DNA from: Dehalococcoidia bacterium
GTDB lineage: Bacteria > Chloroflexota > Dehalococcoidia > Lucifugimonadales > UBA3495
Direction: 5' to 3'
Assembly (NCBI GenBank): GCA_030740155.1
Contig: JASLXV010000048.1
Location: 1-30,067 of the forward strand
DNA: 30,067 bases
The notes beneath the pieces are model-generated. The model did not search any database. It worked only from the letters and a program-made list of their open reading frames with translations, and was not told the origin of the DNA. Positions 7,772 to 19,836 of this stretch are shown one piece after another. A program made the position numbers and the translations under genes. Numbering within the stretch: the stretch's first letter is position 1; the number at the start of each line of letters is the position of its first letter.

Positions 7772-10336
7772 ATGAAATTAGCAGAAGTAGCACCGCAACC
7801 TGGGCAACCGGAAGAGGACGTATGGGTGCCCTCCGCCTGCGGCATGTGCTATTCCCAATGCGGGATCAAAGTCCACAGGGTCAACGGGGTGGTAGTCAAG
7901 ATCGAAGGCAATCCTGACTTTCCCCACAACTGGGGCCGGTTGTGTGCCAAGGGCCATGCCGCAATCATGAGCCTCTACGACCCCAGCCGGGTCCGGACTC
8001 CTTTGAAGCGGACCAACCCGGAGAAAGGCATAGGGGTCGACCCCAAGTGGGTGGAGATAGGCTGGGATGAGGCCATCGACCTTGTCGCCGACAAGCTGAG
8101 GAAGACCAGGGCGGATAATCCCGACAAGCTGGCCATGGCCACTTTTGATATCCAGGGCTTGCGCTTCGCTGGTTGCTGGATGGGGGCCTTCGGCAGCACC
8201 AACGAGAATTGGATCTCCGCCAACTACTTCTGTGGCGCGGGACTCCACCTGGCCACGTATCTCACCAACGCTTCCTTTCACATGTCCGTGGACCTCTCTC
8301 ATTGTAACTACTGCCTCCTCATCGGGAGCCAGCACGGGTTCGGAGTGGGTCACTCGCCCAACTTGACCACCCAGAAGATGGCCGACGCCAGGATCCGAGG
8401 GATGCGGGTGGTGTCGGTTGATCCCGTGTGCTCTAACGCGGCCAGTAAGGCCGATGAATGGGTCCCCATCAGGCCGGGCACCGACGGGGCCCTGGCTCTG
8501 TCAATTCTGAATGTAATGCTGAATGAACTGGGCATCTATGATGCGGAGTTCATCAAGAACAAAACCAACGGCCCCTACCTGGTTGGCCCTGATGGGCTCT
8601 ACATTCGGGACGAGGAGAGCCGGCGCCCCCTGGTCTGGGACTCTTCCGCCGGGACCGCTAGGCCCTATGATTCGGCTGACGTGCCCGACATGGCGATTGA
8701 AGGGGTCTACACGGTCCAGGGCAAAACATGCCATCCTGCCTTCCAGCGATTGAAGGAACACGTCAAGGGCTATAGCCCGGAAACGGTCTCCGAGATAACC
8801 ACGGTCCCCGCCGAAACGATTCGGCGGATAGCTAAAGAGTATGGCGAGGCCGCTAAGATCGGCTCCACCATCATGATAGGCGGAGAGGAGCTTCCCTACC
8901 GGCCGGCGGCGGTCCACATGTACCGGGGCGCTTACAGCCATAAGCATTCGGCTGCTCACTCCATGGCGATTCAGCTTCTGAACATCGTGGTGGGGAATAT
9001 CTACGCACCCGGGGGGCACGGCGGTCCGAATCCCGTTGGGCCCTGGTGGGAGCCGGGGGAAGGAGTGGATGGGCTGCTGGTCGCCTCCCCTAAGACGCAG
9101 GTGGGAGTGCCGCCATATGAATTTCTGGCCACCATTCCCGAGCCTCCGAAGGCCCCCCACCTCGGGTCCCTTTTCCCCCTGGCCTACGCGAGAGGGGACG
9201 TCGCCCTCCAGCTAGGCACCACCGACCACGAGAAATATGGCGTCCCGGCGCCGGATGTCCTGATCCATTGCCGCACCAACATGATGATGACCACCGTGGC
9301 GCCGGAGCGGATGGCCCAGGCGTTGAAAAATATTGCCTTCCAGGTTTCCTTTGCCCGGGAGATCGACGAGACGGTCCAATTTGCCGATGTAGTTCTGCCC
9401 GATCTTCACTTCCTGGAAAAGCTGGACCCGGTCCCCAACGACATCGTCGCCCGGCAGAGCCCCGGCAGCGGCTATTGGTATCTCGGAATACGCCAACCGG
9501 TGGTGAAGCCGCCATTCACCGGATTCCACTGGCTGGATGTGCTTGCGGAGCTTGCGGAGCGGGCGGGGTTCCTGGAAGACTATAACTTCATGCTGATGGC
9601 CGCCCTCTCCTCTCGGACCCCCACAAAGCTGGAACCCCTACGGAAATACAGTCTCGAAGAGTTGAGCGACATCTGGCTCAAGGCGCTGTCCGGAGATGAG
9701 AACAAGGGGCTGCCCTGGTTCCAAGAGAACGCGATGCTTACCACCAAGCGGACGGTGCGGGAGGTCTATCCGCAGACTGCTTTCAAGTACCGGATACCCC
9801 TCTACTACGAGCACTTTCTCAAGGCAAGAGACTACGTGGAAGAGGTGGCCCGACAGATGGGGCTTGACTGGGATACCTCCGACTATCAGGTCCTGCCCGA
9901 GTGGAAGCCCTGCCTCGCTTTCGAGCCCACCGAACAGCATGACCTGCTGGTGGTCAGCTATACTATCCCGTTCCACCAGTACTCTATCAGCGCGCAAAAC
10001 CCGTGGCTGAATGAGATCAGTGAGCACCATCCCTATGCCTACAACATCATGGTGAACACCGAGACCGCCCGCCGGCGGGGGATCAAGGATGGGGCCAACA
10101 TCACTGTGGAGACGATGGCGGGGCGCAAGGTGACCGGCAAGGTCAAGGTGACTCAATGTGTTCATCCTGAGGTGGTGGCGATCGGCGGTATCTTTGGGGC
10201 GTGGGCCGACGGTAAGCCGATCGCCAAGGGCAAGGGAGTTCATTTCAATAGCCTGCTCCCCTTTGATCTGGAACACATCGACATGATTTCCACCTCAGCG
10301 GATGCCTGCGAGCGGGTGAGAATCTACCCCGCATAG
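7772..10336 (+). CDS. Molybdopterin oxidoreductase catalytic subunit (DMSO reductase superfamily, PadB-like), no Tat leader
   Basis: N-terminal FS0 motif CGMCYSQC...IEGNP...GRLCAKG, PLKRTNPEKG, ADEWVPIRPGTDGA, ADVVLPD and a C-terminal MGD-binding domain. Confidence 0.92.
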   Translation: MKLAEVAPQPGQPEEDVWVPSACGMCYSQCGIKVHRVNGVVVKIEGNPDFPHNWGRLCAKGHAAIMSLYDPSRVRTPLKRTNPEKGIGVDPKWVEIGWDEAIDLVADKLRKTRADNPDKLAMATFDIQGLRFAGCWMGAFGSTNENWISANYFCGAGLHLATYLTNASFHMSVDLSHCNYCLLIGSQHGFGVGHSPNLTTQKMADARIRGMRVVSVDPVCSNAASKADEWVPIRPGTDGALALSILNVMLNELGIYDAEFIKNKTNGPYLVGPDGLYIRDEESRRPLVWDSSAGTARPYDSADVPDMAIEGVYTVQGKTCHPAFQRLKEHVKGYSPETVSEITTVPAETIRRIAKEYGEAAKIGSTIMIGGEELPYRPAAVHMYRGAYSHKHSAAHSMAIQLLNIVVGNIYAPGGHGGPNPVGPWWEPGEGVDGLLVASPKTQVGVPPYEFLATIPEPPKAPHLGSLFPLAYARGDVALQLGTTDHEKYGVPAPDVLIHCRTNMMMTTVAPERMAQALKNIAFQVSFAREIDETVQFADVVLPDLHFLEKLDPVPNDIVARQSPGSGYWYLGIRQPVVKPPFTGFHWLDVLAELAERAGFLEDYNFMLMAALSSRTPTKLEPLRKYSLEELSDIWLKALSGDENKGLPWFQENAMLTTKRTVREVYPQTAFKYRIPLYYEHFLKARDYVEEVARQMGLDWDTSDYQVLPEWKPCLAFEPTEQHDLLVVSYTIPFHQYSISAQNPWLNEISEHHPYAYNIMVNTETARRRGIKDGANITVETMAGRKVTGKVKVTQCVHPEVVAIGGIFGAWADGKPIAKGKGVHFNSLLPFDLEHIDMISTSADACERVRIYPA

Positions 10337-10420
10337 CCCTTGAATGCCGGACCATCTCCGGTGGAAACCCGTGGCCGCTGCCTGGGCCATGCCTTGGCAA
10401 GAAGACAGAAGGAGTTAGAC

Positions 10421-11023
10421 ATGGTGCGTTGGGCCATGGCCGTGGACCTGAAACGGTGCATCGGGTGCAACGCCTGCGCGGTTGCCTGCAAGTCGGAGAA
10501 CGGCACCCCGCCGGGGGTGTTCTGGAAGCGGGTGCTCGATACCGAGGTTGGGACCTACCCCTTTGCCCAACGAGAGTTCGTGCCGCTCGGCTGCAATCAC
10601 TGCGGAAACCCGCCATGCGAGACCATCTGCCCCACCGGCGCCACTTACAAACGGCCGGACGGGATAGTGATGGTGGACTACGACAGATGCATCGGCTGCG
10701 GGGCCTGCATCATCGCCTGCCCCTACCAGGTGCGCTTCGTCTGGGAAACAAAGGGGGGCTACTTCGGGGAAGAACTCACCCCCTTCGAAGAGGTGAAATA
10801 CGCCGAGTTCCGGCGCGGCACCGTCCAGAAGTGCAACTTTTGCTACACCCGCCTGGAGCGGGGACTGGCGCCGGCTTGTGTGGAGAGTTGCATCGCCCGT
10901 GCCCTAAATTACGGAGACCTGGACGACCCGGAGAGCCCTCTACATCGGGTTCTCCGGGAACGCAACTCTTACCGGCCCCGGGAGGAACTGGGTACCGAAC
11001 CGGGCCTTTACTACCTCACATAA
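10421..11023 (+). CDS. 4Fe-4S dicluster electron-transfer subunit (DmsB/NrfC/PadC-like)
   Basis: DLKRCIGCNACAVAC, CNHCGNPPCETICP, CIGCGACIIACPY and KCNFC...PACVESC. ATG at 10421 follows AGGAG. Confidence 0.95.
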   Translation: MVRWAMAVDLKRCIGCNACAVACKSENGTPPGVFWKRVLDTEVGTYPFAQREFVPLGCNHCGNPPCETICPTGATYKRPDGIVMVDYDRCIGCGACIIACPYQVRFVWETKGGYFGEELTPFEEVKYAEFRRGTVQKCNFCYTRLERGLAPACVESCIARALNYGDLDDPESPLHRVLRERNSYRPREELGTEPGLYYLT

Positions 11024-11036
11024 CCCAGGGGGGGCT

Positions 11037-11954
11037 TTGGCACAATCAACAGAGCTATTTGTCCGGGATTTGCGGCCCCAACGGGCATGGGGTGCGTCGG
11101 TGGCTTTGGACCTCTTCCTGGAAGGGGCGGGGGCCGGACTCTTCTTTTTGGCGGTGATGTTGCACCGCTACGGGTTCATTGCTGACACGCCGGCCGACGT
11201 GGGAGCATGGGCAGGGCTGGTGGCGGCCGGGGCGGGCACCCTTTTCCTCTTCGCTCACCTGGGCGTTCGCCGGCGCTTTCTGAACGTGTTTCGCCGGCCT
11301 CGGACCAGTTGGATGAGCCGAGGGGCGTACATTGTGACGGTGTTCGGTATTTTCGGCTTCGTCGCTTTACTGCCTTCGATTCCGGGGCTTGAAGGGCTAC
11401 CTTGGGAAGAAGGAACGGCGGCGGGCACCATCCTCCGATCGTTGGCCCTGGTTTTTGCGATGTTGTTGATGGCCTACACTGGGCTTGTCCTTTCGTCGTG
11501 GCCGTCGATACCCTTCTGGAACACACCCCTTCTGCCTCTGTTGTTTATCGCCAACTCCTTGCTGGCGGGAGGCGCCGTGCTTCTCATGCTGGGGGCAATA
11601 GTAGAGGCTGACGAGATTACTTCCAGGTTAAAGGTGTTAACGCTGGCCTTATCGGTGGGGAATGGCTTCGGGCTTCTGTTCTACCTGATGGTCATGGCTT
11701 CGGCCACGGCGCCGGCGAGGGAGTCGGTGCGCCGGTTGCTGCGGGGAGAACAGCGGTGGGCCTTCCTGCTGGGCTTAGTAGGGATCGGGATCCTCCTTCC
11801 CGTGCTGTTCCTCGCTCTGGAGACGGGCGGCCTGCTCGGGTCGGGCACAGCGGAGATAGTGATCCTAGTGCTAGGTGGATTGGCTGTCCTGACCGGGGGA
11901 GTCGTCCTCCGGGATGTCTTCTTGCGGGTGGGGGTGTATGGATACCCAGTCTAG
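11037..11954 (+). CDS. NrfD/PsrC/PadD-like membrane anchor subunit
   Basis: About 8 hydrophobic segments; HLG...R, SWMSRG, YTG.VL and IPFWNTPLLP motifs. Confidence 0.9.
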   Translation: MAQSTELFVRDLRPQRAWGASVALDLFLEGAGAGLFFLAVMLHRYGFIADTPADVGAWAGLVAAGAGTLFLFAHLGVRRRFLNVFRRPRTSWMSRGAYIVTVFGIFGFVALLPSIPGLEGLPWEEGTAAGTILRSLALVFAMLLMAYTGLVLSSWPSIPFWNTPLLPLLFIANSLLAGGAVLLMLGAIVEADEITSRLKVLTLALSVGNGFGLLFYLMVMASATAPARESVRRLLRGEQRWAFLLGLVGIGILLPVLFLALETGGLLGSGTAEIVILVLGGLAVLTGGVVLRDVFLRVGVYGYPV

Positions 11955-12000
11955 AAACGCCGCCGCGCCCCGGCCGGGCAGCGGAGGGGAGCCCGAGCCG

Positions 12001-12294
12001 GTGGTGGCCGTGAAGGCAGTGATGATGGGTGAACTCCGGCAGATTACCGGCAAGCGGGAGTGGGAAGTGGAGCTTCCCCAAGGGAGCACCGTGCAGACGC
12101 TGTTGGAGAAGCTCTCGGTCCTGTGCGGGGAAGGCTTCGCGCGGCGGGTGCTGACCCGGGATGGAATGCCCCCCCAGCACATGGCGATGTTTGTGGATGG
12201 CGTGCATATACAGACCCTCGCGGGCACCGAAACGGTCCTTCCCGGCGGGCAGGTCGAGCTGCTCATCTTGCACGTGTTCGACGGAGGGGCCTAG
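12001..12294 (+). CDS. MoaD/ThiS/SAMP-family ubiquitin-like protein (ends DGGA)
   Basis: Beta-grasp pattern (ELRQITGKREWEV, FVDGVHI..L.G.ET.L..G.VELLIL..FDGG). The start is probably the GTG at 12001 or 12010 after GGAGGGG. Confidence 0.85.
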   Translation: MVAVKAVMMGELRQITGKREWEVELPQGSTVQTLLEKLSVLCGEGFARRVLTRDGMPPQHMAMFVDGVHIQTLAGTETVLPGGQVELLILHVFDGGA

Positions 12295-12461
12295 GCCCAG
12301 TCTTGCTTCACCTCCACCCCGGCGCCGGCCGCGACGCCCAGGCCAGCTCCCCTGGCGATGCCCGTCGCACCTGAAGCCCCGGCATCCACCCGTACCACTG
12401 CCCCCATGCTTCTTTATGGTTATCCGGTAGAGCTGATTTCCTCCGGCGGTACGGGTTTTCC

Positions 12462-12483
12462 CCGTTCGTGGTGGGCTCGTCGA
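12462..12483 (+). repeat. REP-like half element (CCGTTCGTGGTGAGC type)
   Basis: CCGTTCGTGGTGGGCTCGTCGA is similar to the reverse complement of the 3' arm at 19227-19253. Confidence 0.5.
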
Positions 12484-12512
12484 GTTACGGCAGCTGAAGA
12501 TCGGATAGGCTC

Positions 12513-13364
12513 CTAGTGAAACAACACCCCTCCGTTGACGTTGTAGGCTTGGCCGGTGATGAAAGAGGCTTCCTCTCCGGCCAGGAAAGCCACCACGTTG
12601 GCCACGTCCTCCGCCTCGGCGATCCGGCCCAGAGGCGTCGCGTTGCCCGCTTTCTCCACCACCTGCGCCCGGAACTCCTCCAGGGTGACCCCTTGCTGTT
12701 CCGCCCGGTCCCGTTCATCGTAGCTGAGCCGGTCGGTGTTGATCGGTCCGGGGCACACCGAATTCACCGTAATGCGGTGGGGGGCCAGGTCCAGGGCGGA
12801 GGCCTGGGTAAGTCCGATGACGGCGAACTTGGACGATGAGTAGGCGGCCCCCAGGGCACTGGCCGTTTTGGCGGCGCGGGAAGCGATGTTGATGATCCGG
12901 CCGCCGGTGCCCTGGCGCACCATCTGCCGGCCCGCCAGCTTGGTGCAGAGGAAGACCGCCGTGGTGTTGACGGCCAGGAAGTGGTCCCAGACCTCCTGGG
13001 ATAGCTCAGTAACCGGGACCCGGTCCCGCCCGATTATCGCCCGGGCGTTGTTGATCAGGATATCCAGGTGGCCGAAGTGGTCCACCGCCTGGCCGACCAT
13101 CGCCTCGATCTGGGAGGCGATCTTCAAATCACAGTACACCGGCAGGCACCGCCGGCCGAGGGCCGCTACTTCATGAGCCACGGTGTCGATGCCGCGCCAT
13201 CCCGCCGTCACTTCTCCCGGTGGCAGGTCCTCGGTCTCCCGGTGCACGTCGGTCAATGCGACGTCGGCGCCCAGGCTGGCCAGCTTCAGCGCCGTGGCGC
13301 GTCCGACCCCCCTCATACCCCCGGCCCCAGTAACCAGGGCAACTTTACCCTCCAGTCCCGGCAT
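12513..13364 (-). CDS. Short-chain dehydrogenase/reductase
   Basis: TGAGGMRGVG, LINNA, YSSSK catalytic motif and FITGQAYNVNGG. ATG at 13364 follows AGGAGG. Confidence 0.95.
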   Translation of the reverse strand: MPGLEGKVALVTGAGGMRGVGRATALKLASLGADVALTDVHRETEDLPPGEVTAGWRGIDTVAHEVAALGRRCLPVYCDLKIASQIEAMVGQAVDHFGHLDILINNARAIIGRDRVPVTELSQEVWDHFLAVNTTAVFLCTKLAGRQMVRQGTGGRIINIASRAAKTASALGAAYSSSKFAVIGLTQASALDLAPHRITVNSVCPGPINTDRLSYDERDRAEQQGVTLEEFRAQVVEKAGNATPLGRIAEAEDVANVVAFLAGEEASFITGQAYNVNGGVLFH

Positions 13365-13509
13365 CAGATACCTCCTCGTTGTCGGCGGCGGTCTCCCGTT
13401 GTGGCGTCGTGGCGTGACCGGCCGCCAGGTGTTCGGGAGCCGGTTTTCATGTGATAGTATTTTCCCTGTAGACAACCACTGGAATCAAGTGGAGGGAGGT
13501 AATTGACCC

Positions 13510-14388
13510 ATGACGACGGTAGGCACCGGGAAATACTCGTACCGGCTCATCAAGGACTGGGCCAAGCTGCCCGCGGGGCAGACCTTCGGCCAGACCAGCG
13601 CCATTGCCACTGACTCTCAGGATCGGGTCTACCTCTTCCAGCGCAAGGACCCGCCGGTGGTGATTTTCGACCGGGAGGGCAACTTCATCGGCTCCTGGGG
13701 TGACGGCAACTTCGTCAGCCCCCATGGTTTCAACATCACCGACGATGTGGTCTACCTCACCGACCGGGAAGGCTCGGTGGCGATGAAGTACACCCTGGAC
13801 GGCAAGCCGCTTCAGATACTCGGCACCCATGGCTTCTACTCGGACACCGGCTGCGAGGTCGCCGGCGAGGTGGCGCCCCGGGCCGCCGGGCCCTTTAATT
13901 TTCCGACCGAGGTTGTCCCAGCCGCTTCGGGGGACCTCTACGTCTCCGATGGCTACCGCAACGCCCGGGTGCACCGCTTCTCCGGCGACGGCAGCCTCAT
14001 CTCTTCCTGGGGCGAGCCCGGCAAAGGAGGCCCCAACCAGTTCCACCTGCCGCACAGCCTGGTGGTAGGCCGGGACGGCCGGGTCTACCTGTGCGACCGG
14101 GAGAACAGCCGCGTTCAGGTCTTCTCCGCCGACGGCCAGTACATCACGATGTGGACCGATATGCAACGCCCCCTGGACATCTCTCAGGATAAAGAGGGCA
14201 TGTTCTACATCAGCGAGCGCCCCGAAGACGGCAAGCCGGCCCAGATAAGCGTGCTGGACGGCGAGGGAAGGGTGCTGGCTCGCTGGCCCTCCCGTTCGGC
14301 CCATGGCTCGTGGGTGGACGCTCACGGAGACATCTACCTGGCCCTGGGCTCGGAGAAGAGCGTAGACAAGTACGTGCGGGTGGGTTAG
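13510..14388 (+). CDS. NHL-repeat beta-propeller protein (peptidyl-alpha-hydroxyglycine lyase-like)
   Basis: Repeated SWG...F..PH, GDLYVSDGYRNARVHRF and VYLCDRENSRVQVF; GGAGG RBS. Confidence 0.9.
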   Translation: MTTVGTGKYSYRLIKDWAKLPAGQTFGQTSAIATDSQDRVYLFQRKDPPVVIFDREGNFIGSWGDGNFVSPHGFNITDDVVYLTDREGSVAMKYTLDGKPLQILGTHGFYSDTGCEVAGEVAPRAAGPFNFPTEVVPAASGDLYVSDGYRNARVHRFSGDGSLISSWGEPGKGGPNQFHLPHSLVVGRDGRVYLCDRENSRVQVFSADGQYITMWTDMQRPLDISQDKEGMFYISERPEDGKPAQISVLDGEGRVLARWPSRSAHGSWVDAHGDIYLALGSEKSVDKYVRVG

Positions 14389-14841: not shown

Positions 14842-14870
14842 TTGACGGCGTGAAAACAAACTACTACAAT
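14842..14870 (+). promoter_or_regulatory. Near-consensus sigma70 promoter for the cohesin-dockerin operon
   Basis: TTGACG-N17-TACAAT. Confidence 0.7.
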
Positions 14871-15018
14871 ATCTGGTGGTGCGAATGAGGCTGACTACCT
14901 GTAAAGGTAGGTCGTTGTTCGATCCATGAATTTAGCTGGGCCCCGGGACTACCGGGGGAGTTCTTACCGTCTGTAACGGCCATGCCTGAGGCCGGTGGCG
15001 ATGGAGGGGAAGGCGGAG

Positions 15019-17886
15019 ATGCGCAGCCTGGCGTTGCTGGTGGGTCTGGCGTCGGTGGTGCTGTTCTCCGCCGTGGCCGCGGATTTGCTTGGTGGTTCCC
15101 GCATCGCCTGGGCCGATGACGATCATGGGGACTACCGGACCCAAGCCACACCCCTGGAAGTTGGCGCCGGCCTGGTCACCGGCGAAATCAGTTCCACCGA
15201 AATCCTCTTCGATGTCGACTATTTCTCCTTCACTGCCCTGCGGGGGACGCGCTACACCCTCGTGTTGGACCTGGTCACCATCGAGAACGCCAACATGCAG
15301 GTGGTTAATTCCGTGGACCGGGGGGCGGGAAGCTCACCGGGCCAGGTCTTTACGACCTTGGCCAGCGGGAAGAGCGTAGAGTGGATAGCGCGTACCCCCG
15401 ACACCTATTTTGTCGAAGTCTCCGGCACCATGGACGCTGTGACTGGATTGGACATCCTGGGCGGCTACACGCTGGAAGTGACCGCCGACGCTTCCTTGGA
15501 AGACCGGCACAGCGAGATCCTGGTTGGAGCAACCCCCATTGAAACCGACAACATCTATCAGGGCGCCATCAGTCCCTGGACCAACCAGCCCGGCCTGGCC
15601 GGGGGTAATCAGGGCGGTGATGACCACGATTACTTCTCCTTCCCGGCCTCCAGAGGCGTGAAGTACACCGTCAGCGTCGAGCTTGGCACCGCGGAAGGGG
15701 TGGAAATCTCCGTGGTCACGCCAACCGGCGCCACCGAGGTTTCGACCGGAGGTATCGGCACCAGCCTCGAGTGGATTTCCCCGGCGTCGGCCACCTATTT
15801 TATAGACGTATCCGGCTCCAGCCGGTTCAGGGATTCCATAGGCACCTACCTGGTCCAACTCAGCGCTGATACCGTTTTCGAGGATCGGCACAGCGATGCC
15901 CATTCCGGAGCGACACCCGTTAACTTCGGCAACGCGCATGAGGGAGCAATCAGTCCGGGGGACGACCAGGACATCTTCTCTTTCCAGGCGGTTAGAGGCG
16001 CGAGATACGCCGTCGCCGCCGATTTGGGCACGGTGCAAGGCATCGGCCTTTCGTTTGAAGGACCCACGGGAAACACCGTGGCCTCCAACGGCGGCATTGG
16101 CACTCAGGTCGAATGGCTGGCCACGGCCACCGGCACTTACTATGTGGTCGCCTCCAGTTCATCCCAGGTCAGAGACCCCGTGGGCACCTATTCCCTCATT
16201 GTCGATGGGGATACCACCCTCAAGGACCGGCATGGGGATTCGAGGAGCGAATCCACTGTCACCAACTTTGGCAACGAACACCAGAGTGCGATCAGCCCGG
16301 CCAACGACCGCGACTACTTCTCATTTCAGGCCAGGCGTGGGGTCACCTATTCCATCGACGTGGTGCTGGGTACCGCCGAGGGTGTGGAGATAGAGGTGGC
16401 GAAGCCCGGCGCCGGAACGGAGGTCTCGAACGGGGGAGTGGGCACTAATATCGAATGGACCGCGCCTGTTAGCGACGTCTACTACGTCGTCATTGCCGCC
16501 GCGGCCCAGGTTGACGACCCCATCGGCACCTACACTCTCAGAGTCGAAGCGACGATCGCGCTGGAGGACCGCCACGGCGAGACCCGGGAAACTGCTACCC
16601 CGGCCACCATCGGAAGCACTTACCAGGCAGCTATCAGCCCCCGGGGAGATTACGACTACTTCTCCTTCCGGGCCAGCAGGGGAGTGAAATATATCTTCGA
16701 GCTGATGTATGGCACGGCCTCTGCCGTATCTCTCACGGTGGACAAGATTGGCGGTGGCTCCGATACCGGCGCCAGAAACTATGGAGAAGGCACCGACGTA
16801 GTCTGGACCGCCCCCGACAGCGATGACTATTTCATCGAGGTCTCCGGGTCGCCCAGGGTTGAAGACCCCACCGGCACCTACCGGCTGAAGATCACCGCGG
16901 ATGCATCTCTGGAGGACCGGCATGGCGGAGTACCCGCCAACGCTACTCGGATCATCGTTGGCAACGCCATGGCCGGCGCCATAAGCCCCCCCGACGACCT
17001 CGACTACTTCTACCTCGACGCGGAGCAAGGCGACGAATATACTGTCCAGGTGGATTTGGGCTCGGCTGAAAACGTCGAATTCACGGTCAGCCACGCGCTG
17101 TTGGGGTTCACCGCTTCCAACTACGGTAGCGGCACCACCCTCTCCTGGCAGGCGCCGATAACCGGCCGGTACGTTCTGGTGGTTTCGAGGTCAAACGAGG
17201 CAATCGATCCCGCCGGGACCTACCAGGTCACCATCCTATCCGGGATCGGCGTGCCCGTTCCGACCCCCACACCCACGCCCACACCCACGCCGACGCCCGC
17301 CGGTCCGACTCCGACTCCGCCGGGGCCGGCGCTGATAGTTGAGTCCCGGATGGGGTCTTCGGGCGCGACTGTCCGCGTCCCGGTGGTGCTGGAAGGGGCG
17401 CAGGAGCTGAGCAGCCTGGGCTTCACCCTTGGCTACGACCCGGCGGTGCTGGAGGTGGTCAGGGTCCTGCGGGGCTCCCGTCTGTCTGGCGCCACCTTTA
17501 GCTACAACGCGGACGTTCCCGGCGTTATCCGCCTGGGATTCTCTTCCACCAGCGGAGTGAGTAGCGGTGGCTCGGCCGTGATAGTAGAGTTCAGAATCCT
17601 TGGAGAGGAGGGCGCCAGTAGCCCGCTGATCCTCTCGGAGGACCTGGCCAGCGACTTCGCCAGCAAGCTCTTGCCGCTCCGCCTCGTCGATGGCGAGGTG
17701 ACCGTCGGAGAGCGGATTGGCGGAGATGGCAACGGGGACGGAAGAATCACTGTGCTGGACGCTCTCATCGCCCTTAGGATCTCCGGAGAACTAAGCCCGG
17801 CGGACTCGGTGATGGACGTAAACCGGGACGGGCAAGTCACGGCGGAAGACGCCCTGCAAATCATGGCATGGGCGAGGCCCGGGTAG
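15019..17886 (+). CDS. Secreted multidomain protein: signal peptide, 6 PPC-like repeats, Pro/Thr linker, cohesin, C-terminal dockerin
   Basis: Signal MRSLALLVGLASVVLFSAVA...AWA; six D-[DR]-H...ISx..D.DyFsF.A..G..Y...W.a..sg.Y repeats; a PT run; cohesin VPV.L...F.L.YDPAVLEV; dockerin GDGNGDGRITVLDA / DVNRDGQVTAEDA. The start could also be 14995 or 15001. Confidence 0.88.
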   Translation: MRSLALLVGLASVVLFSAVAADLLGGSRIAWADDDHGDYRTQATPLEVGAGLVTGEISSTEILFDVDYFSFTALRGTRYTLVLDLVTIENANMQVVNSVDRGAGSSPGQVFTTLASGKSVEWIARTPDTYFVEVSGTMDAVTGLDILGGYTLEVTADASLEDRHSEILVGATPIETDNIYQGAISPWTNQPGLAGGNQGGDDHDYFSFPASRGVKYTVSVELGTAEGVEISVVTPTGATEVSTGGIGTSLEWISPASATYFIDVSGSSRFRDSIGTYLVQLSADTVFEDRHSDAHSGATPVNFGNAHEGAISPGDDQDIFSFQAVRGARYAVAADLGTVQGIGLSFEGPTGNTVASNGGIGTQVEWLATATGTYYVVASSSSQVRDPVGTYSLIVDGDTTLKDRHGDSRSESTVTNFGNEHQSAISPANDRDYFSFQARRGVTYSIDVVLGTAEGVEIEVAKPGAGTEVSNGGVGTNIEWTAPVSDVYYVVIAAAAQVDDPIGTYTLRVEATIALEDRHGETRETATPATIGSTYQAAISPRGDYDYFSFRASRGVKYIFELMYGTASAVSLTVDKIGGGSDTGARNYGEGTDVVWTAPDSDDYFIEVSGSPRVEDPTGTYRLKITADASLEDRHGGVPANATRIIVGNAMAGAISPPDDLDYFYLDAEQGDEYTVQVDLGSAENVEFTVSHALLGFTASNYGSGTTLSWQAPITGRYVLVVSRSNEAIDPAGTYQVTILSGIGVPVPTPTPTPTPTPTPAGPTPTPPGPALIVESRMGSSGATVRVPVVLEGAQELSSLGFTLGYDPAVLEVVRVLRGSRLSGATFSYNADVPGVIRLGFSSTSGVSSGGSAVIVEFRILGEEGASSPLILSEDLASDFASKLLPLRLVDGEVTVGERIGGDGNGDGRITVLDALIALRISGELSPADSVMDVNRDGQVTAEDALQIMAWARPG
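15115..17238 (+). repeat. Six tandem about 115-128 aa PPC-like domain repeats
   Basis: Units begin DDHGD (about 15118), EDRHS (15499), EDRHS (15880), KDRHG (16222), EDRHG (16564) and EDRHG (16912). Confidence 0.9.
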
Positions 17887-17896
17887 AGGAGCCGGC

Positions 17897-18613
17897 ATGA
17901 AGTGGTTCCTGGACATATCGTTTCTGGCCTTGAGCGCCAGCAAATATTGGGTGCTGGGCGGGCTTGCGGCCGTGGTGATTCTCGTGGGGGCGCTATTTGT
18001 ATTCGGCGTCTTCGGCGGCGACGATGAAGTGACGCCCGATCCCACGCCGACTCCGGCCCCAACACTTGCTCCAACTAAGAAACCCGCACCTACAGCTTTA
18101 CCCACGGCGGCGCCTACGGCTACGCCGGCTCCCACGGCTCCCCCGGCCACGCCGCTGCCCACGGCGACACCACTGATTGTCGCCACCCCGGTTGCCACTC
18201 TCGAGCCAACCCCTGCTCCTCCTACCGACATCGTGGCGCCTATCTACCTGGAACAGGCCAACAACGTGGGAAGCTTGGAATTCGTCTTGCTGTACGAGCC
18301 GGCGGTCCTGCGGGTGGCCAAAATCGAGCCGGGCGCTCTGGCGGGCAGTGCGCTGATCGAGACCAGCGATGGGTCCCCGGGCCAAGTTTGGGCGGGAATG
18401 ATCGACGTTAACGGTATGAACGGAGATGGCCCCGTGGCCGTAATCACCTTCGAGATAGTTGGGGCCAGCGGGTCGACCAGCCCGCTGACCTTGCAGGATG
18501 TGGCCGCTCACGATGCCACCACCTTGCTGGACATCCTCACCGAGGTTTCAGCGGGCAGCTTCGCGGTCGACGACCAAGCCCTCACCGCTCCAACCCTGGC
18601 CTTTCTTCCCTAG
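17897..18613 (+). CDS. Membrane-anchored cohesin-domain protein with a Pro/Thr/Ala stalk
   Basis: N-terminal TM segment (YWVLGGLAAVVILVGALFVFGVF), about 65 aa PT-rich linker and a cohesin that aligns without gaps to the upstream one (SLEFVLLYEPAVLRV...PGQV...SPLTL). GAGGAG RBS; start 10 nt after the upstream stop. Confidence 0.85.
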   Translation: MKWFLDISFLALSASKYWVLGGLAAVVILVGALFVFGVFGGDDEVTPDPTPTPAPTLAPTKKPAPTALPTAAPTATPAPTAPPATPLPTATPLIVATPVATLEPTPAPPTDIVAPIYLEQANNVGSLEFVLLYEPAVLRVAKIEPGALAGSALIETSDGSPGQVWAGMIDVNGMNGDGPVAVITFEIVGASGSTSPLTLQDVAAHDATTLLDILTEVSAGSFAVDDQALTAPTLAFLP

Positions 18614-18630
18614 CCTGCCCGCAGTCCCCG

Positions 18631-18654
18631 GCCCGCCGGGCCCGGGCGGGCTTT
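18631..18654 (+). terminator. Hairpin closing the cohesin operon
   Basis: GCCCGCC-N7-GGCGGGC followed by TTT. Confidence 0.5.
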
Positions 18655-18741: not shown

Positions 18742-19158
18742 ATGGCATCGATCACACTCGCGGAAGCGGAAAAGGCGCTGGCGGCGGCCAAAGCTAAGGT
18801 CTTGGCAATGGGCGCCAAGATGAGCGTTTCGGTGGTTGATCCCAGGGGCGACCTGATCGCCATGTTCCGGACCGACGGCGCCTCGTGGCGGACACCAGCA
18901 ATATCCCGGGGCAAAGCGTTGGCCGCGGCCTGTTTCGGCCGGTCCAGCGCCGATATGGCGGACAACGCCCAGTCGCCGGTCCTGCGGGGTCTCATGGCCA
19001 TGGAGGGAGGACACATGATCCCCGGCCAGGGCGCGCTGCCCGCGTTTCGTGACGGCGAGATTGTCGGCGCCATCGGCGGTAGTGGCGGCACCGGCCAGCA
19101 GGACGAGGATGCCGCGAGGGCGGGAATCGAGGCTGCGGGGCTTTCAACCAAAGGCTAG
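18742..19158 (+). CDS. GlcG/HbpS-family heme-binding protein
   Basis: SVSVVDPRG.L..M.R.DGA, S.GKA and GAIGGSGGTGQQDE..A.AG. Confidence 0.9.
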   Translation: MASITLAEAEKALAAAKAKVLAMGAKMSVSVVDPRGDLIAMFRTDGASWRTPAISRGKALAAACFGRSSADMADNAQSPVLRGLMAMEGGHMIPGQGALPAFRDGEIVGAIGGSGGTGQQDEDAARAGIEAAGLSTKG

Positions 19159-19309: not shown

Positions 19310-19836
19310 ATGCTCGAGAGGATAGCCGTCGTACAGGGTGACCTTACCCTGCTACAGGCCGACGGCATCGTTAACGCCGCCAACCGCTCCCTTCTGGGCG
19401 GCGGCGGTGTCGACGGAGCGATCCATCGTGCCGCCGGGCCGCGGTTGCTCGAAGAGTGCCGGAGCCTGGGAGGCTGCGAGACGGGCGACGCCAAGATCAC
19501 CGGGGGCTATGGCCTGGCCGCGCTCTGGGTGATTCACACCGTTGGACCGGTGTGGTGGGGGGGGGCGGACACGCCGAGGATGAGCTGTTGGCCCGGTGCT
19601 ACCGGAGTTGTTTCGCCCTCGCGGAGCGGCACGCCATGCGCTCCATCGGGTTCCCGGCCATCAGCACCGGAGCCTACCGCTTTCCCCTGGAACGGGCCAC
19701 CTTGATCGCGCTCACCGAGACCAGGGACTTTCTGCGGACGAGTGAGTCGGTCAAACATGTGAGCTTCGTCTGCTTTACGCCACTTGCCTACCAGTGCTAC
19801 TTGACCACCATGGAAGCATTAACCGGACCGGAATAA
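19310..19836 (+). pseudogene. ymdB: Macrodomain O-acetyl-ADP-ribose deacetylase (YmdB-like), frameshifted at a G9 tract
   Basis: Frame 1 carries [31 protein letters not shown]...VIHTVGPVW. Frame 2 carries EDELLARCY...[12 protein letters not shown]. The switch falls at G9 19557-19565. Confidence 0.88.

Follow-up and report, generated by a model that had tools for sequence, protein, structure and literature searches.

What is a cohesin-dockerin pair for in a cell that appears to build no cellulosome? To our knowledge, the role of pairs of the Archaeoglobus fulgidus type has been unexplained since their first description. The question is raised anew by a two-gene cassette (positions 14842 to 18654) within a 30,067-nucleotide stretch, here called the window, of contig JASLXV010000048.1 from a Dehalococcoidia bacterium (assembly GCA_030740155.1; 3.6 Mb, 93.7% complete, 7.7% contaminated). 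Gene 1 of this cassette encodes a repeat protein that ends in a cohesin (CohA) and a dockerin, together referred to as the dyad, while gene 2 encodes a membrane-anchored protein with a second, single cohesin (CohB). Structural modeling supports capture of the gene 1 dockerin by CohB, a step that we regard as very probable when taken alone. With less assurance, we lean toward the complete explanation, that of a two-part cassette that tethers the gene 1 repeat protein to the membrane through CohB. The cassette is real and conserved, and it is likely to function as a surface tether.

The partner of the dockerin

Insight into the pairing comes from a model in which the dockerin was offered both cohesins, as the original prediction had proposed. 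With CohA, CohB, and the dockerin present as separate chains together with two Ca ions, the model places the dockerin on CohB and scores 0.87, compared with 0.46 for the best of three controls; this mark is reached by 116 of 157 solved complexes and by 2 of 215 mismatched pairs. The runs agree in at least 75% of their contacts, the pLDDT of the partners is at least 91, and all 25 of the lowest-error contacts lie between the dockerin and CohB. In particular, the first helix of the dockerin (V920, L921, L924, L927, R928) rests on the canonical face of CohB (S126, I169, D170, H205, A207, L210). CohA contacts the dockerin only through residues 781-788, 798, and 898-905, which belong to its first and last strands, and its own socket is left free. 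The junction between CohA and the dockerin is 11 residues long in 112 of 116 homologues and, by our reading, is too short to let the dockerin reach the socket of its own CohA. (It should be noted that a control in which CohA and the dockerin were kept and CohB was replaced scored 0.02; this value is not counted against binding by CohA.)

The docking-face positions were mapped from 2vn5/1g1k alignments before any modeling. Their mean entropy is 1.12 bits in CohB, compared with 2.51 for the back face, and the equivalent positions of CohA average 1.79, compared with 2.25. Because the model docks the dockerin on this conserved face of CohB, with CohA packed in cis, anchoring is likely, and it is the best-supported step of the proposal. 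The idea that gene 2 encodes an anchor, first put forward in the original prediction, thus draws on the conserved docking face, the complex model, and a strict adjacency of the two genes.

From these data, a path to the cell surface can be proposed. The gene 1 protein would be exported by the Sec pathway, after which membrane-anchored CohB would capture its dockerin in what is probably a Ca-dependent interaction, the first helix of the dockerin being predicted to dock on the CohB face. Through strands 1 and 9, CohA is predicted to pack on its own dockerin to give one rigid, X-module-like unit whose socket stays free. By default, each anchor would hold one cargo, so displayed that the six non-catalytic repeats lie outside the membrane; the protein would probably be an adhesin or a surface ligand-binder, with the repeats serving in adhesion or capture. 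A membrane anchor may be used because the cell appears to have no peptidoglycan from which proteins could hang. Searches of the genome for the FtsW/RodA, transpeptidase, and SLH families found none, and an excerpt of a study of SAR202 isolates reports no peptidoglycan synthesis and an S-layer-like coat (PMC10444878). The family that carries the cassette probably belongs to the SAR202 group. Clusters of gene 1 homologues are named Dehalococcoidia, Chloroflexota, and marine metagenome, and one locus that is 78% identical is labelled as an uncultured member of the Dehalococcoidia.

Conservation and spread of the cassette

A genome-wide census using Pfam, family-built profiles, and a pattern search detects one dockerin and two cohesins in the host, all of them within the cassette. 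None of the three methods found a second dockerin in this 93.7%-complete genome. No multi-cohesin scaffoldin was found in the genome, whose cohesins lie in two single-cohesin proteins, and the same is true of all 8 cassette-bearing genomes of the family. Neither GH5 nor GH9 was found in the genome, and a GH48 search, run without a positive control, gave no matches anywhere and therefore carries no weight. Among 40 relatives, the cassette is present in 8 of 24 genomes of the same family and in none of 16 other genomes of the order. The cohesin count is exactly two in each of these 8, and the dockerin count is exactly one in 7 of them; the extra dockerin, in genome G764, is of another type and does not match the profile of the cassette dockerin family. 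Consequently, the cassette is closed within the family.

The gene pair is also kept in relatives known from metagenomes, where synteny was examined in the best 80 of 93 loci found with the gene 2 alignment. In 72 of these, the CohB gene is preceded by a dockerin gene whose end lies 9-61 bp away. The other 8 lack the upstream DNA: six have 1-133 bp of it, and in two the gene is cut at the start of the contig. Farther afield, two overlapping class-wide samples of 301 and 401 genomes contain the adjacent pair in six genomes of other families (G061, G115, G259, G070, G370, and G334), in which the cargo is TSP3, LamG, CarboxypepD_reg, or unnamed and the anchor is of the transmembrane or the lipobox type. 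Two more genomes, G295 and G331, have a CohB-like gene with no adjacent dyad within the stretch examined, and 2 of 400 genomes in a sample of the phylum match at E 1e-20.

A profile search of 1.84 billion representatives yielded 551 matches at E 1e-30. The best 150 include 148 new proteins, of which 108 have the full CohA-dockerin dyad, located at the C-terminus in 94. When the 75 of these 108 that are 330-1000 residues long were scanned for cargo, a family was recognized in 30: LamG (8), PA14 (4), PPC (4), propeller types (4), and, for the rest, TSP3, PKD, CarboxypepD_reg, FecR, CBM35, and TIG. All 30 are binding or structural types, and no glycoside hydrolase or peptidase cargo was seen in the 75 proteins scanned. 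Other families keep the CohA-dockerin tail and swap the cargo.

Some individual loci deserve mention in their own right. L080 (5417-5965) and L081 (6542-7006) encode CohB-type lipoprotein anchors without an adjacent dyad in the stretch examined, and their docking faces look more diverged. In L078 (G370:C53:2843-10268), a single CohB anchor follows two different dyad proteins, one with LamG and one with an unnamed cargo, as well as two further exported proteins; the locus is a natural case in which to tell sharing from chaining. L165 (G414:C142:1185-4745, minus strand), from a member of the Chloroflexota of another class, has a dyad gene followed by a gene for a cohesin with a full strand 1; the latter protein has a C-terminal transmembrane helix, a Pro-rich stretch, and a tail that by eye is FHA-like, making an anchor with a cytoplasmic signaling end possible. 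L048 lies in a record titled Methanobacteriota archaeon, but its cassette is about 80% identical to that of the window and a similar large gene follows; the contig is probably mis-binned or mislabelled, and gene transfer to an archaeon was not adopted as an explanation.

Alternatives to a simple tether

If the free socket of CohA were to accept the dockerin of another gene 1 protein, CohB would take the first subunit of an anchored chain, and each CohA would take the next dockerin to give a bottle-brush in which every link projects its repeat array from its Pro/Thr linker. In such links the dockerin may be flipped, with its second helix (A950, E951, L954) leading. This is a serious possibility, but one that we place clearly below even. 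The CohA socket is free in the model, and the sole dockerin available to it is its own. In a set of 263 dyads (effective size 88), the socket retains its central strand (R846 77%, G848 81%, A850 83%, N838 80%), the back face of the same set having a mean entropy of 2.93. The top covariation between CohA and the dockerin joins face residues 809 (rank 2 of all pairs) and 807 (rank 9) to position 950, which in helix 3 corresponds to V920. When 92 sequences are placed on a tree, 809-950 comes 4th, 807-950 18th, and 851-954 45th among 5412 pairs; the equivalent helix-1 pairs, 807-920 and 809-920, come 4679th and 1926th. By symmetry with the modeled contacts S126-V920 and D170-L924, the covarying pairs correspond to contacts of a flipped dockerin. 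However, the pairs were chosen after the data had been seen, and the tree test reuses the same data. In addition, tests with independent pairs have too little power (median p 0.25-1), z values just as high occur for unrelated pairs, and no enrichment is seen for the whole set of face-by-helix-3 pairs (p 0.43); the helix-3 covariation is therefore best taken as a weak hint. Furthermore, the model gave the dockerin to CohB when both cohesins were offered, and CohA has lost peripheral docking residues that CohB keeps (D170, aromatic 205, A207, L210, D212). Excerpts of published work do provide precedents: cohesin 2375 and dockerin 2375 of A. fulgidus, parts of one polypeptide, have been used as a binding pair (PMC3520109), and the cohesin of R. 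bromii Amy4 binds its own dockerin (PMC4611034). Taken together, chain formation would occur in perhaps a third of the worlds compatible with these findings. A more elaborate joint proposal is rather unlikely: the CohA-dockerin tail would be a portable tag for many adhesin-like cargoes, and the cassette an enzyme-free, two-gene surface fiber of wall-less marine Dehalococcoidia, in which a rewired CohB, its strand 1 replaced by the C-terminal strand, seeds the bottle-brush and an asymmetric dockerin presents helix 1 to the anchor and, flipped, helix 3 to the next cohesin.

The CohA socket might instead accept some other dockerin, whether borne by a divergent protein that the cell itself makes or supplied by other organisms, making the gene 1 protein an adaptor or scavenger. 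Its free and partly conserved socket would suit such a role, as would the 4-7 dockerins of cassette genomes from other families (G061, G259, G370, G334, G414), the two dyad proteins that stand ahead of one anchor in G370, and the scavenging suggested, in an excerpt, for Paenibacillus guangzhouensis (PMC11557425). Yet the census described above speaks against this function, which the original prediction had also entertained, in the present lineage: the only dockerin detected is that of gene 1, a single dockerin is the rule in the family, and the additional one in G764 falls outside the profile. We consider an adaptor quite improbable. More improbable still is a cell in which the modules do not pair at all, the gene 1 protein being released or self-associating and the cohesins acting as beta-sandwich spacers. 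Excerpts of the literature do describe functions outside cellulosomes as largely unexplained (PMC5244752, PMC9012536), but the strict gene adjacency, the invariant Asp residues of the Ca loops, the conserved CohB face, and the complex model all argue otherwise.

Tethering by CohB, the reading that is preferred here, has its own difficulties. One sortase was detected in the genome, which means that anchoring is possible by other routes. The 21 CohB residues of the modeled interface average 1.36 bits, compared with 1.57 for random positions that include the core, and 13% of draws are as low, so that the difference is not significant. Cohesin-dockerin complexes have already been solved, and the success of the model may reflect likeness to them; moreover, the complex job used alignments made by the authors plus Ca, unlike the calibration set, and the cis pose of CohA on the dockerin may come from same-chain alignment rows. 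One marine clade makes up most of the homologue set (effective size 22-24), and 45 of the 75 dyad cargoes have no Pfam family. R954 of the dockerin, 98% conserved across the family, is Leu in the present genome. Finally, four metatranscriptome runs, drawn from two studies, contain short pieces of both genes, mostly at least 99% alike; in three of the four, however, coverage of the upstream 14.8 kb is similarly sparse. Since this evidence consists of contigs, transcription is not demonstrable from it, and no contig of the four runs spans the junction of gene 1 and gene 2 with sufficient overlap.

The gene 1 protein

Pfam, hydropathy, and structural models agree with the original reading of gene 1 as a signal peptide, six PPC-like repeats, a Pro/Thr linker, a cohesin, and a Ca-loop dockerin; the positions given there for the cohesin (about 17329-17709) and the dockerin (about 17722-17875) are correct, and Cohesin, Dockerin_1, and PPC all score above their cut-offs. 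The coordinates of these and the other features are collected in Table 1. Translation probably begins at the ATG at 15019, as homologues start at the corresponding Met. The protein has a single hydrophobic stretch (residues 10-33), and the signal peptide would be cleaved after A-W-A (residue 40).

Table 1. Features of the cassette, in coordinates of the window
Feature	Position	Strand	Basis
Promoter candidate, sigma-70-like, TTGACG-N17-TACAAT	14842..14870	+	Consensus match 10/12
Gene 1, exported repeat protein with C-terminal cohesin-dockerin pair	14995..17886	+	Open reading frame, Pfam, homologues, model
Predicted Sec signal peptide	15019..15114	+	Hydropathy; A-x-A before DDHG in homologues
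Six PPC / collagenase-CBD-like beta-sandwich repeats	15118..17250	+	Pfam, self-comparison, model
Repeat starts	15118, 15502, 15883, 16225, 16567, 16915	+	Self-comparison
Pro/Thr linker	17251..17322	+	Sequence; pLDDT <50 in model
CohA, complete nine-strand cohesin, tightly fused to dockerin	17323..17709	+	PF00963, model
Dockerin, two Ca-loop/helix repeats	17722..17874	+	PF00404, invariant Asp, model helices
Gene 2, membrane-anchored single-cohesin protein	17897..18613	+	Open reading frame, Pfam
Predicted N-terminal transmembrane anchor, no lipobox	17948..18010	+	Hydropathy 2.6; relatives
Pro/Thr/Ala stalk, 65 residues	18029..18223	+	22 P, 16 T, 14 A
CohB, anchor cohesin, begins at strand 2, extra C-terminal strand	18224..18610	+	Pfam, conservation, model
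Extra C-terminal strand of CohB, P-x-L-x-F	about 18581-18604	+	P232 100%, F236 96%
Closing G+C hairpin with three-T tail, weak terminator candidate	18631..18654	+	Read from sequence

The six repeats are 112-128 residues long and are 36-49% identical to repeat 3. PPC (PF04151) scores 26.2 bits on gene 1 against a cut-off of 25.9, a whole-protein sum to which no single stretch contributes significantly on its own, and reaches up to 69.6 bits in homologues; full-length homologues have 6-8 repeats, and one has 5. In the model of the whole protein (pLDDT 84, pTM 0.50), the repeats form six similar, separate beta-sandwiches joined by short linkers. They resemble the tandem CBD of ColG (5iku) in sequence (E 7e-6) and in fold (E 2.3e-8), and their Atlas matches are PPC clusters. 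(Cubilin, neuropilin, and other proteins returned by a whole-protein Foldseek search were rejected; with rmsd >20 Å, they reflect strings of beta-sandwiches.) The D-x-H and D-x-D motifs conserved in the repeats lie at what we take to be the Ca-binding place of the clostridial domains, and by this analogy the repeats may be Ca-stiffened rods. The mature protein is acidic (120 D+E versus 52 K+R). No peptidase domain was detected in gene 1 by Pfam, NCBIfam, or the model, and in one long relative an HExxH-family match is weak, far below the cut-off.

CohA matches the Pfam Cohesin family PF00963 with 50.6 bits (cut-off 24.1; residues 781-904). The model of the dyad has a pLDDT of 90.7 and a pTM of 0.81, and the CohA fold aligns with 2xdh (Z 21.1, rmsd 1.8 Å, 136 residues), a match that ties with those to type I cohesins. 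R785 is conserved in 83-91% of homologues. The dockerin matches Dockerin_1 (PF00404) with 28.5 bits (cut-off 22.9; residues 910-956) and is modeled with two helices; D911, D922, D941, and D952 are invariant across the 263 dyads, while its two repeats differ from each other at positions 10, 11, 14, and 18.

Two further observations concern dockerin residues. Positions 912 and 925 (window 17728 and 17767) are the top covarying pair of the dyad, and the presence of Cys at both in 13 of 92 sequences points to a dockerin-internal disulfide in some lineages. At window 17854-17865, the present dockerin has L954 and M957, whereas Arg (98%) and Leu (94%) prevail at these positions in the close family; no compensating change was seen on either cohesin face.

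The predicted anchor and its probably strand-replaced cohesin

Hydropathy, composition, and a Pfam match likewise sustain the earlier description of gene 2 as a transmembrane anchor, a Pro/Thr stalk, and a second cohesin. A single hydrophobic stretch (residues 18-41) is present; in short relatives, a lipobox-like Cys takes the place of the transmembrane anchor. Of 113 matches in a homologue search, 111 are cohesin-length homologues. CohB, which is about 34% identical to CohA, scores 32.5 bits with PF00963 (cut-off 24.1), but the match covers model positions 15-137 only and does not include the canonical N-terminal strand 1. Just about 5-10 residues separate the lipobox-like Cys or transmembrane helix from strand 2 in short relatives, too few to accommodate a strand 1.

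All of the short relatives have instead an extra segment at the end of CohB, with P232 (100%), L234, and F236 (96%). This extra C-terminal strand may occupy the strand-1 slot, and the short turn before it suggests an antiparallel hairpin. Covariation among 258 CohB sequences (effective size 41) does not distinguish the orientation of the strand; its hydrophobicity, compared with that of CohA strand 1, gives a reversed r of 0.49. A cohesin in which strand 1 is missing and an additional C-terminal strand is conserved appears to be a new feature, as judged from its sequence family; among papers on circular permutation of cohesins or dockerins, no title describes such a cohesin, titles being the part that was surveyed. 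A quick cohesin tree separates 31 anchor-type sequences (support 78) from most dyad cohesins; it is partly circular, however, because the sequence labels leaned on the CohB profile.

Gene arrangement and neighboring DNA

The two open reading frames, 14995-17886 (963 residues) and 17897-18613 (238 residues), lie on the same strand, 10 bp apart. The original prediction had given this unit its own promoter and closing hairpin. The promoter-like site is conserved in three relatives, being identical in L047 and L048 and retaining both hexamers in L109. The hairpin is real, with a stem of 7 pairs (18631-18651) followed by just three T, but the label 'terminator' is weak, since a terminator scan passed the hairpin over and the T tract is so short. 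A strong hairpin lies directly 3' of gene 2 in 3 of 8 other loci examined. Between the promoter candidate and the probable start is a leader of about 150 bases (14871-15018, + strand) that contains a small hairpin (14895-14910); L047 and L048 show good conservation of the leader. As anticipated, no glycoside hydrolase or CBM family matches either protein in Pfam or NCBIfam, and all NCBIfam matches of the cassette proteins are far below cut-off.

An HbpS-like (PF03928) gene follows the cassette (window 18742-19158, + strand), as it does directly in at least 11 related loci (L093, L096, L097, L121, L123, L134, L152, and L171-L174). By eye it has no signal peptide, and a TACAAT hexamer lies just upstream; its presence probably reflects inherited synteny. 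Next is a Macro-domain gene (19310-19836, + strand) that is split over two frames near a run of at least 9 G at about 19554-19564. The 540 bases are identical in L085, a near-identical assembly, and the split represents either slipped-strand variation or a shared assembly error. On the other side, between dehydrogenase E1 genes and the cassette, 7772-14388 holds a molybdopterin oxidoreductase/NrfD cluster, an SDR gene, and an NHL-propeller gene. Most of this block looks like an insertion or a loss, since in L047 the cassette lies about 850 bases after the E1 beta gene.

Implications

What began as a single odd case in A. fulgidus is now a large comparative set: the tail occurs in over 100 clusters defined at 50% identity, and residue-level tests become feasible on three small domains suited to expression in E. 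coli. Membrane-bound anchors and non-catalytic cargo point to a general surface-display tag. If chains form, the cassette would be a minimal self-extending surface fiber in peptidoglycan-less marine bacteria, about whose envelope very little is known. As for the strand-replaced anchor cohesin, it would add a new topology to a domain that has been studied in depth and might supply an orthogonal pair for designer scaffolds.

Comparison with known systems

A literature search found no paper that joins Dehalococcoidia, cohesin, and dockerin, and a search with Chloroflex, cohesin, and dockerin returned, at the level of titles, work on biomass metagenomes and the like. The closest solved relative is the cohesin of A. 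fulgidus, and by its sequence features the cassette is a variant of the 2375/2376 cassette of that archaeon. 2xdh is the best solved match of both cohesin profiles (E 2e-19 and 3e-19; next, 2.5e-9 and 8.7e-11) and the top Foldseek match of CohA, which upholds the kinship. In an excerpt of PMC3520109, the cloning primers end cohesin 2375 at IVSQEE and start dockerin 2375 at EEANK, so the A. fulgidus cohesin abuts its dockerin, as in gene 1; the two served there as a matched pair in designer cellulosomes. An excerpt of PMC9705933 reports that Coh76 binds Doc75 and numbers the cohesin-only ORF2376 next to ORF2375; gene 2 likewise has a single cohesin as its sole recognized module. Thus, a cohesin-dockerin C-terminus, an adjacent single-cohesin gene, and a cohesin closest to 2xdh are all found here. 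The present cassette differs in its bacterial host, in its cargo, a PPC array that other families exchange for different domains, in an anchor with a transmembrane helix or lipobox, and perhaps in a CohB without strand 1; in addition, CohA does not have the Asp and Tyr that 2xdh holds at matching face positions. Archaeal anchors like ORF2376 were not among 58 short CohB homologues; because this kind of search depends on shared words, the result does not show that they are absent.

In XDoc modules, the X-module packs against the adjoining dockerin. A beta-domain is predicted to pack on the dockerin in cis here as well, but by profile and fold this domain is a cohesin, not an X-module. Single-cohesin surface anchors of cellulosomes (C. 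thermocellum OlpA/SdbA with the CipA XDoc; R. flavefaciens ScaE) take a dockerin-tailed protein, as is predicted for CohB, and the CohA fold is type I-like (Z 19-21, rmsd <2 Å). Nevertheless, a cellulosome was rejected, given that neither a multi-cohesin scaffoldin nor a dockerin-bearing hydrolase was found, and, unlike the setting of cellulosome anchors, searches of the host genome found no GH5, GH9, or SLH.

The amylosome of R. bromii offers another likeness: in an excerpt of PMC4611034, Amy4 has a cohesin and a dockerin in one protein, a surface-anchored cohesin (Sca2) binds that dockerin, and self-multimerization was proposed after binding tests. The notion that a protein might multimerize by way of its own cohesin and dockerin thus has a forerunner. 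Amy4, however, is a GH13 enzyme from a genome with many dockerins, whereas the present cassette has no enzyme and one dockerin. The six repeats, for their part, are like ColG s3a-s3b (5iku) and PPC in sequence and fold. Unlike clostridial collagenase, gene 1 has no protease domain, and binding of collagen or protein is not claimed, although a marine protease is reported to bind proteins through its PPC domains (PMC3327674).

Non-cellulosomal cohesin-dockerin proteins are, according to excerpts of several studies, widespread and mostly unexplained (PMC5244752, PMC9012536, PMC11557425, PMC6461901, PMC8542988, PMC13487519, PMC12484212). Among them, ANME archaea, the 'planctosome' of Planctomycetes, P. 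guangzhouensis, and Cellulosilyticum ClcC/ClcD combine cohesins and dockerins without a classical cellulosome, and their members include adaptors that join a single cohesin to a single dockerin (PMC9012536, PMC6461901, PMC11557425, PMC13487519, again in excerpt). Those systems have many partners or enzyme cargo, whereas the cassette described here is a closed two-gene unit with a non-catalytic cargo.

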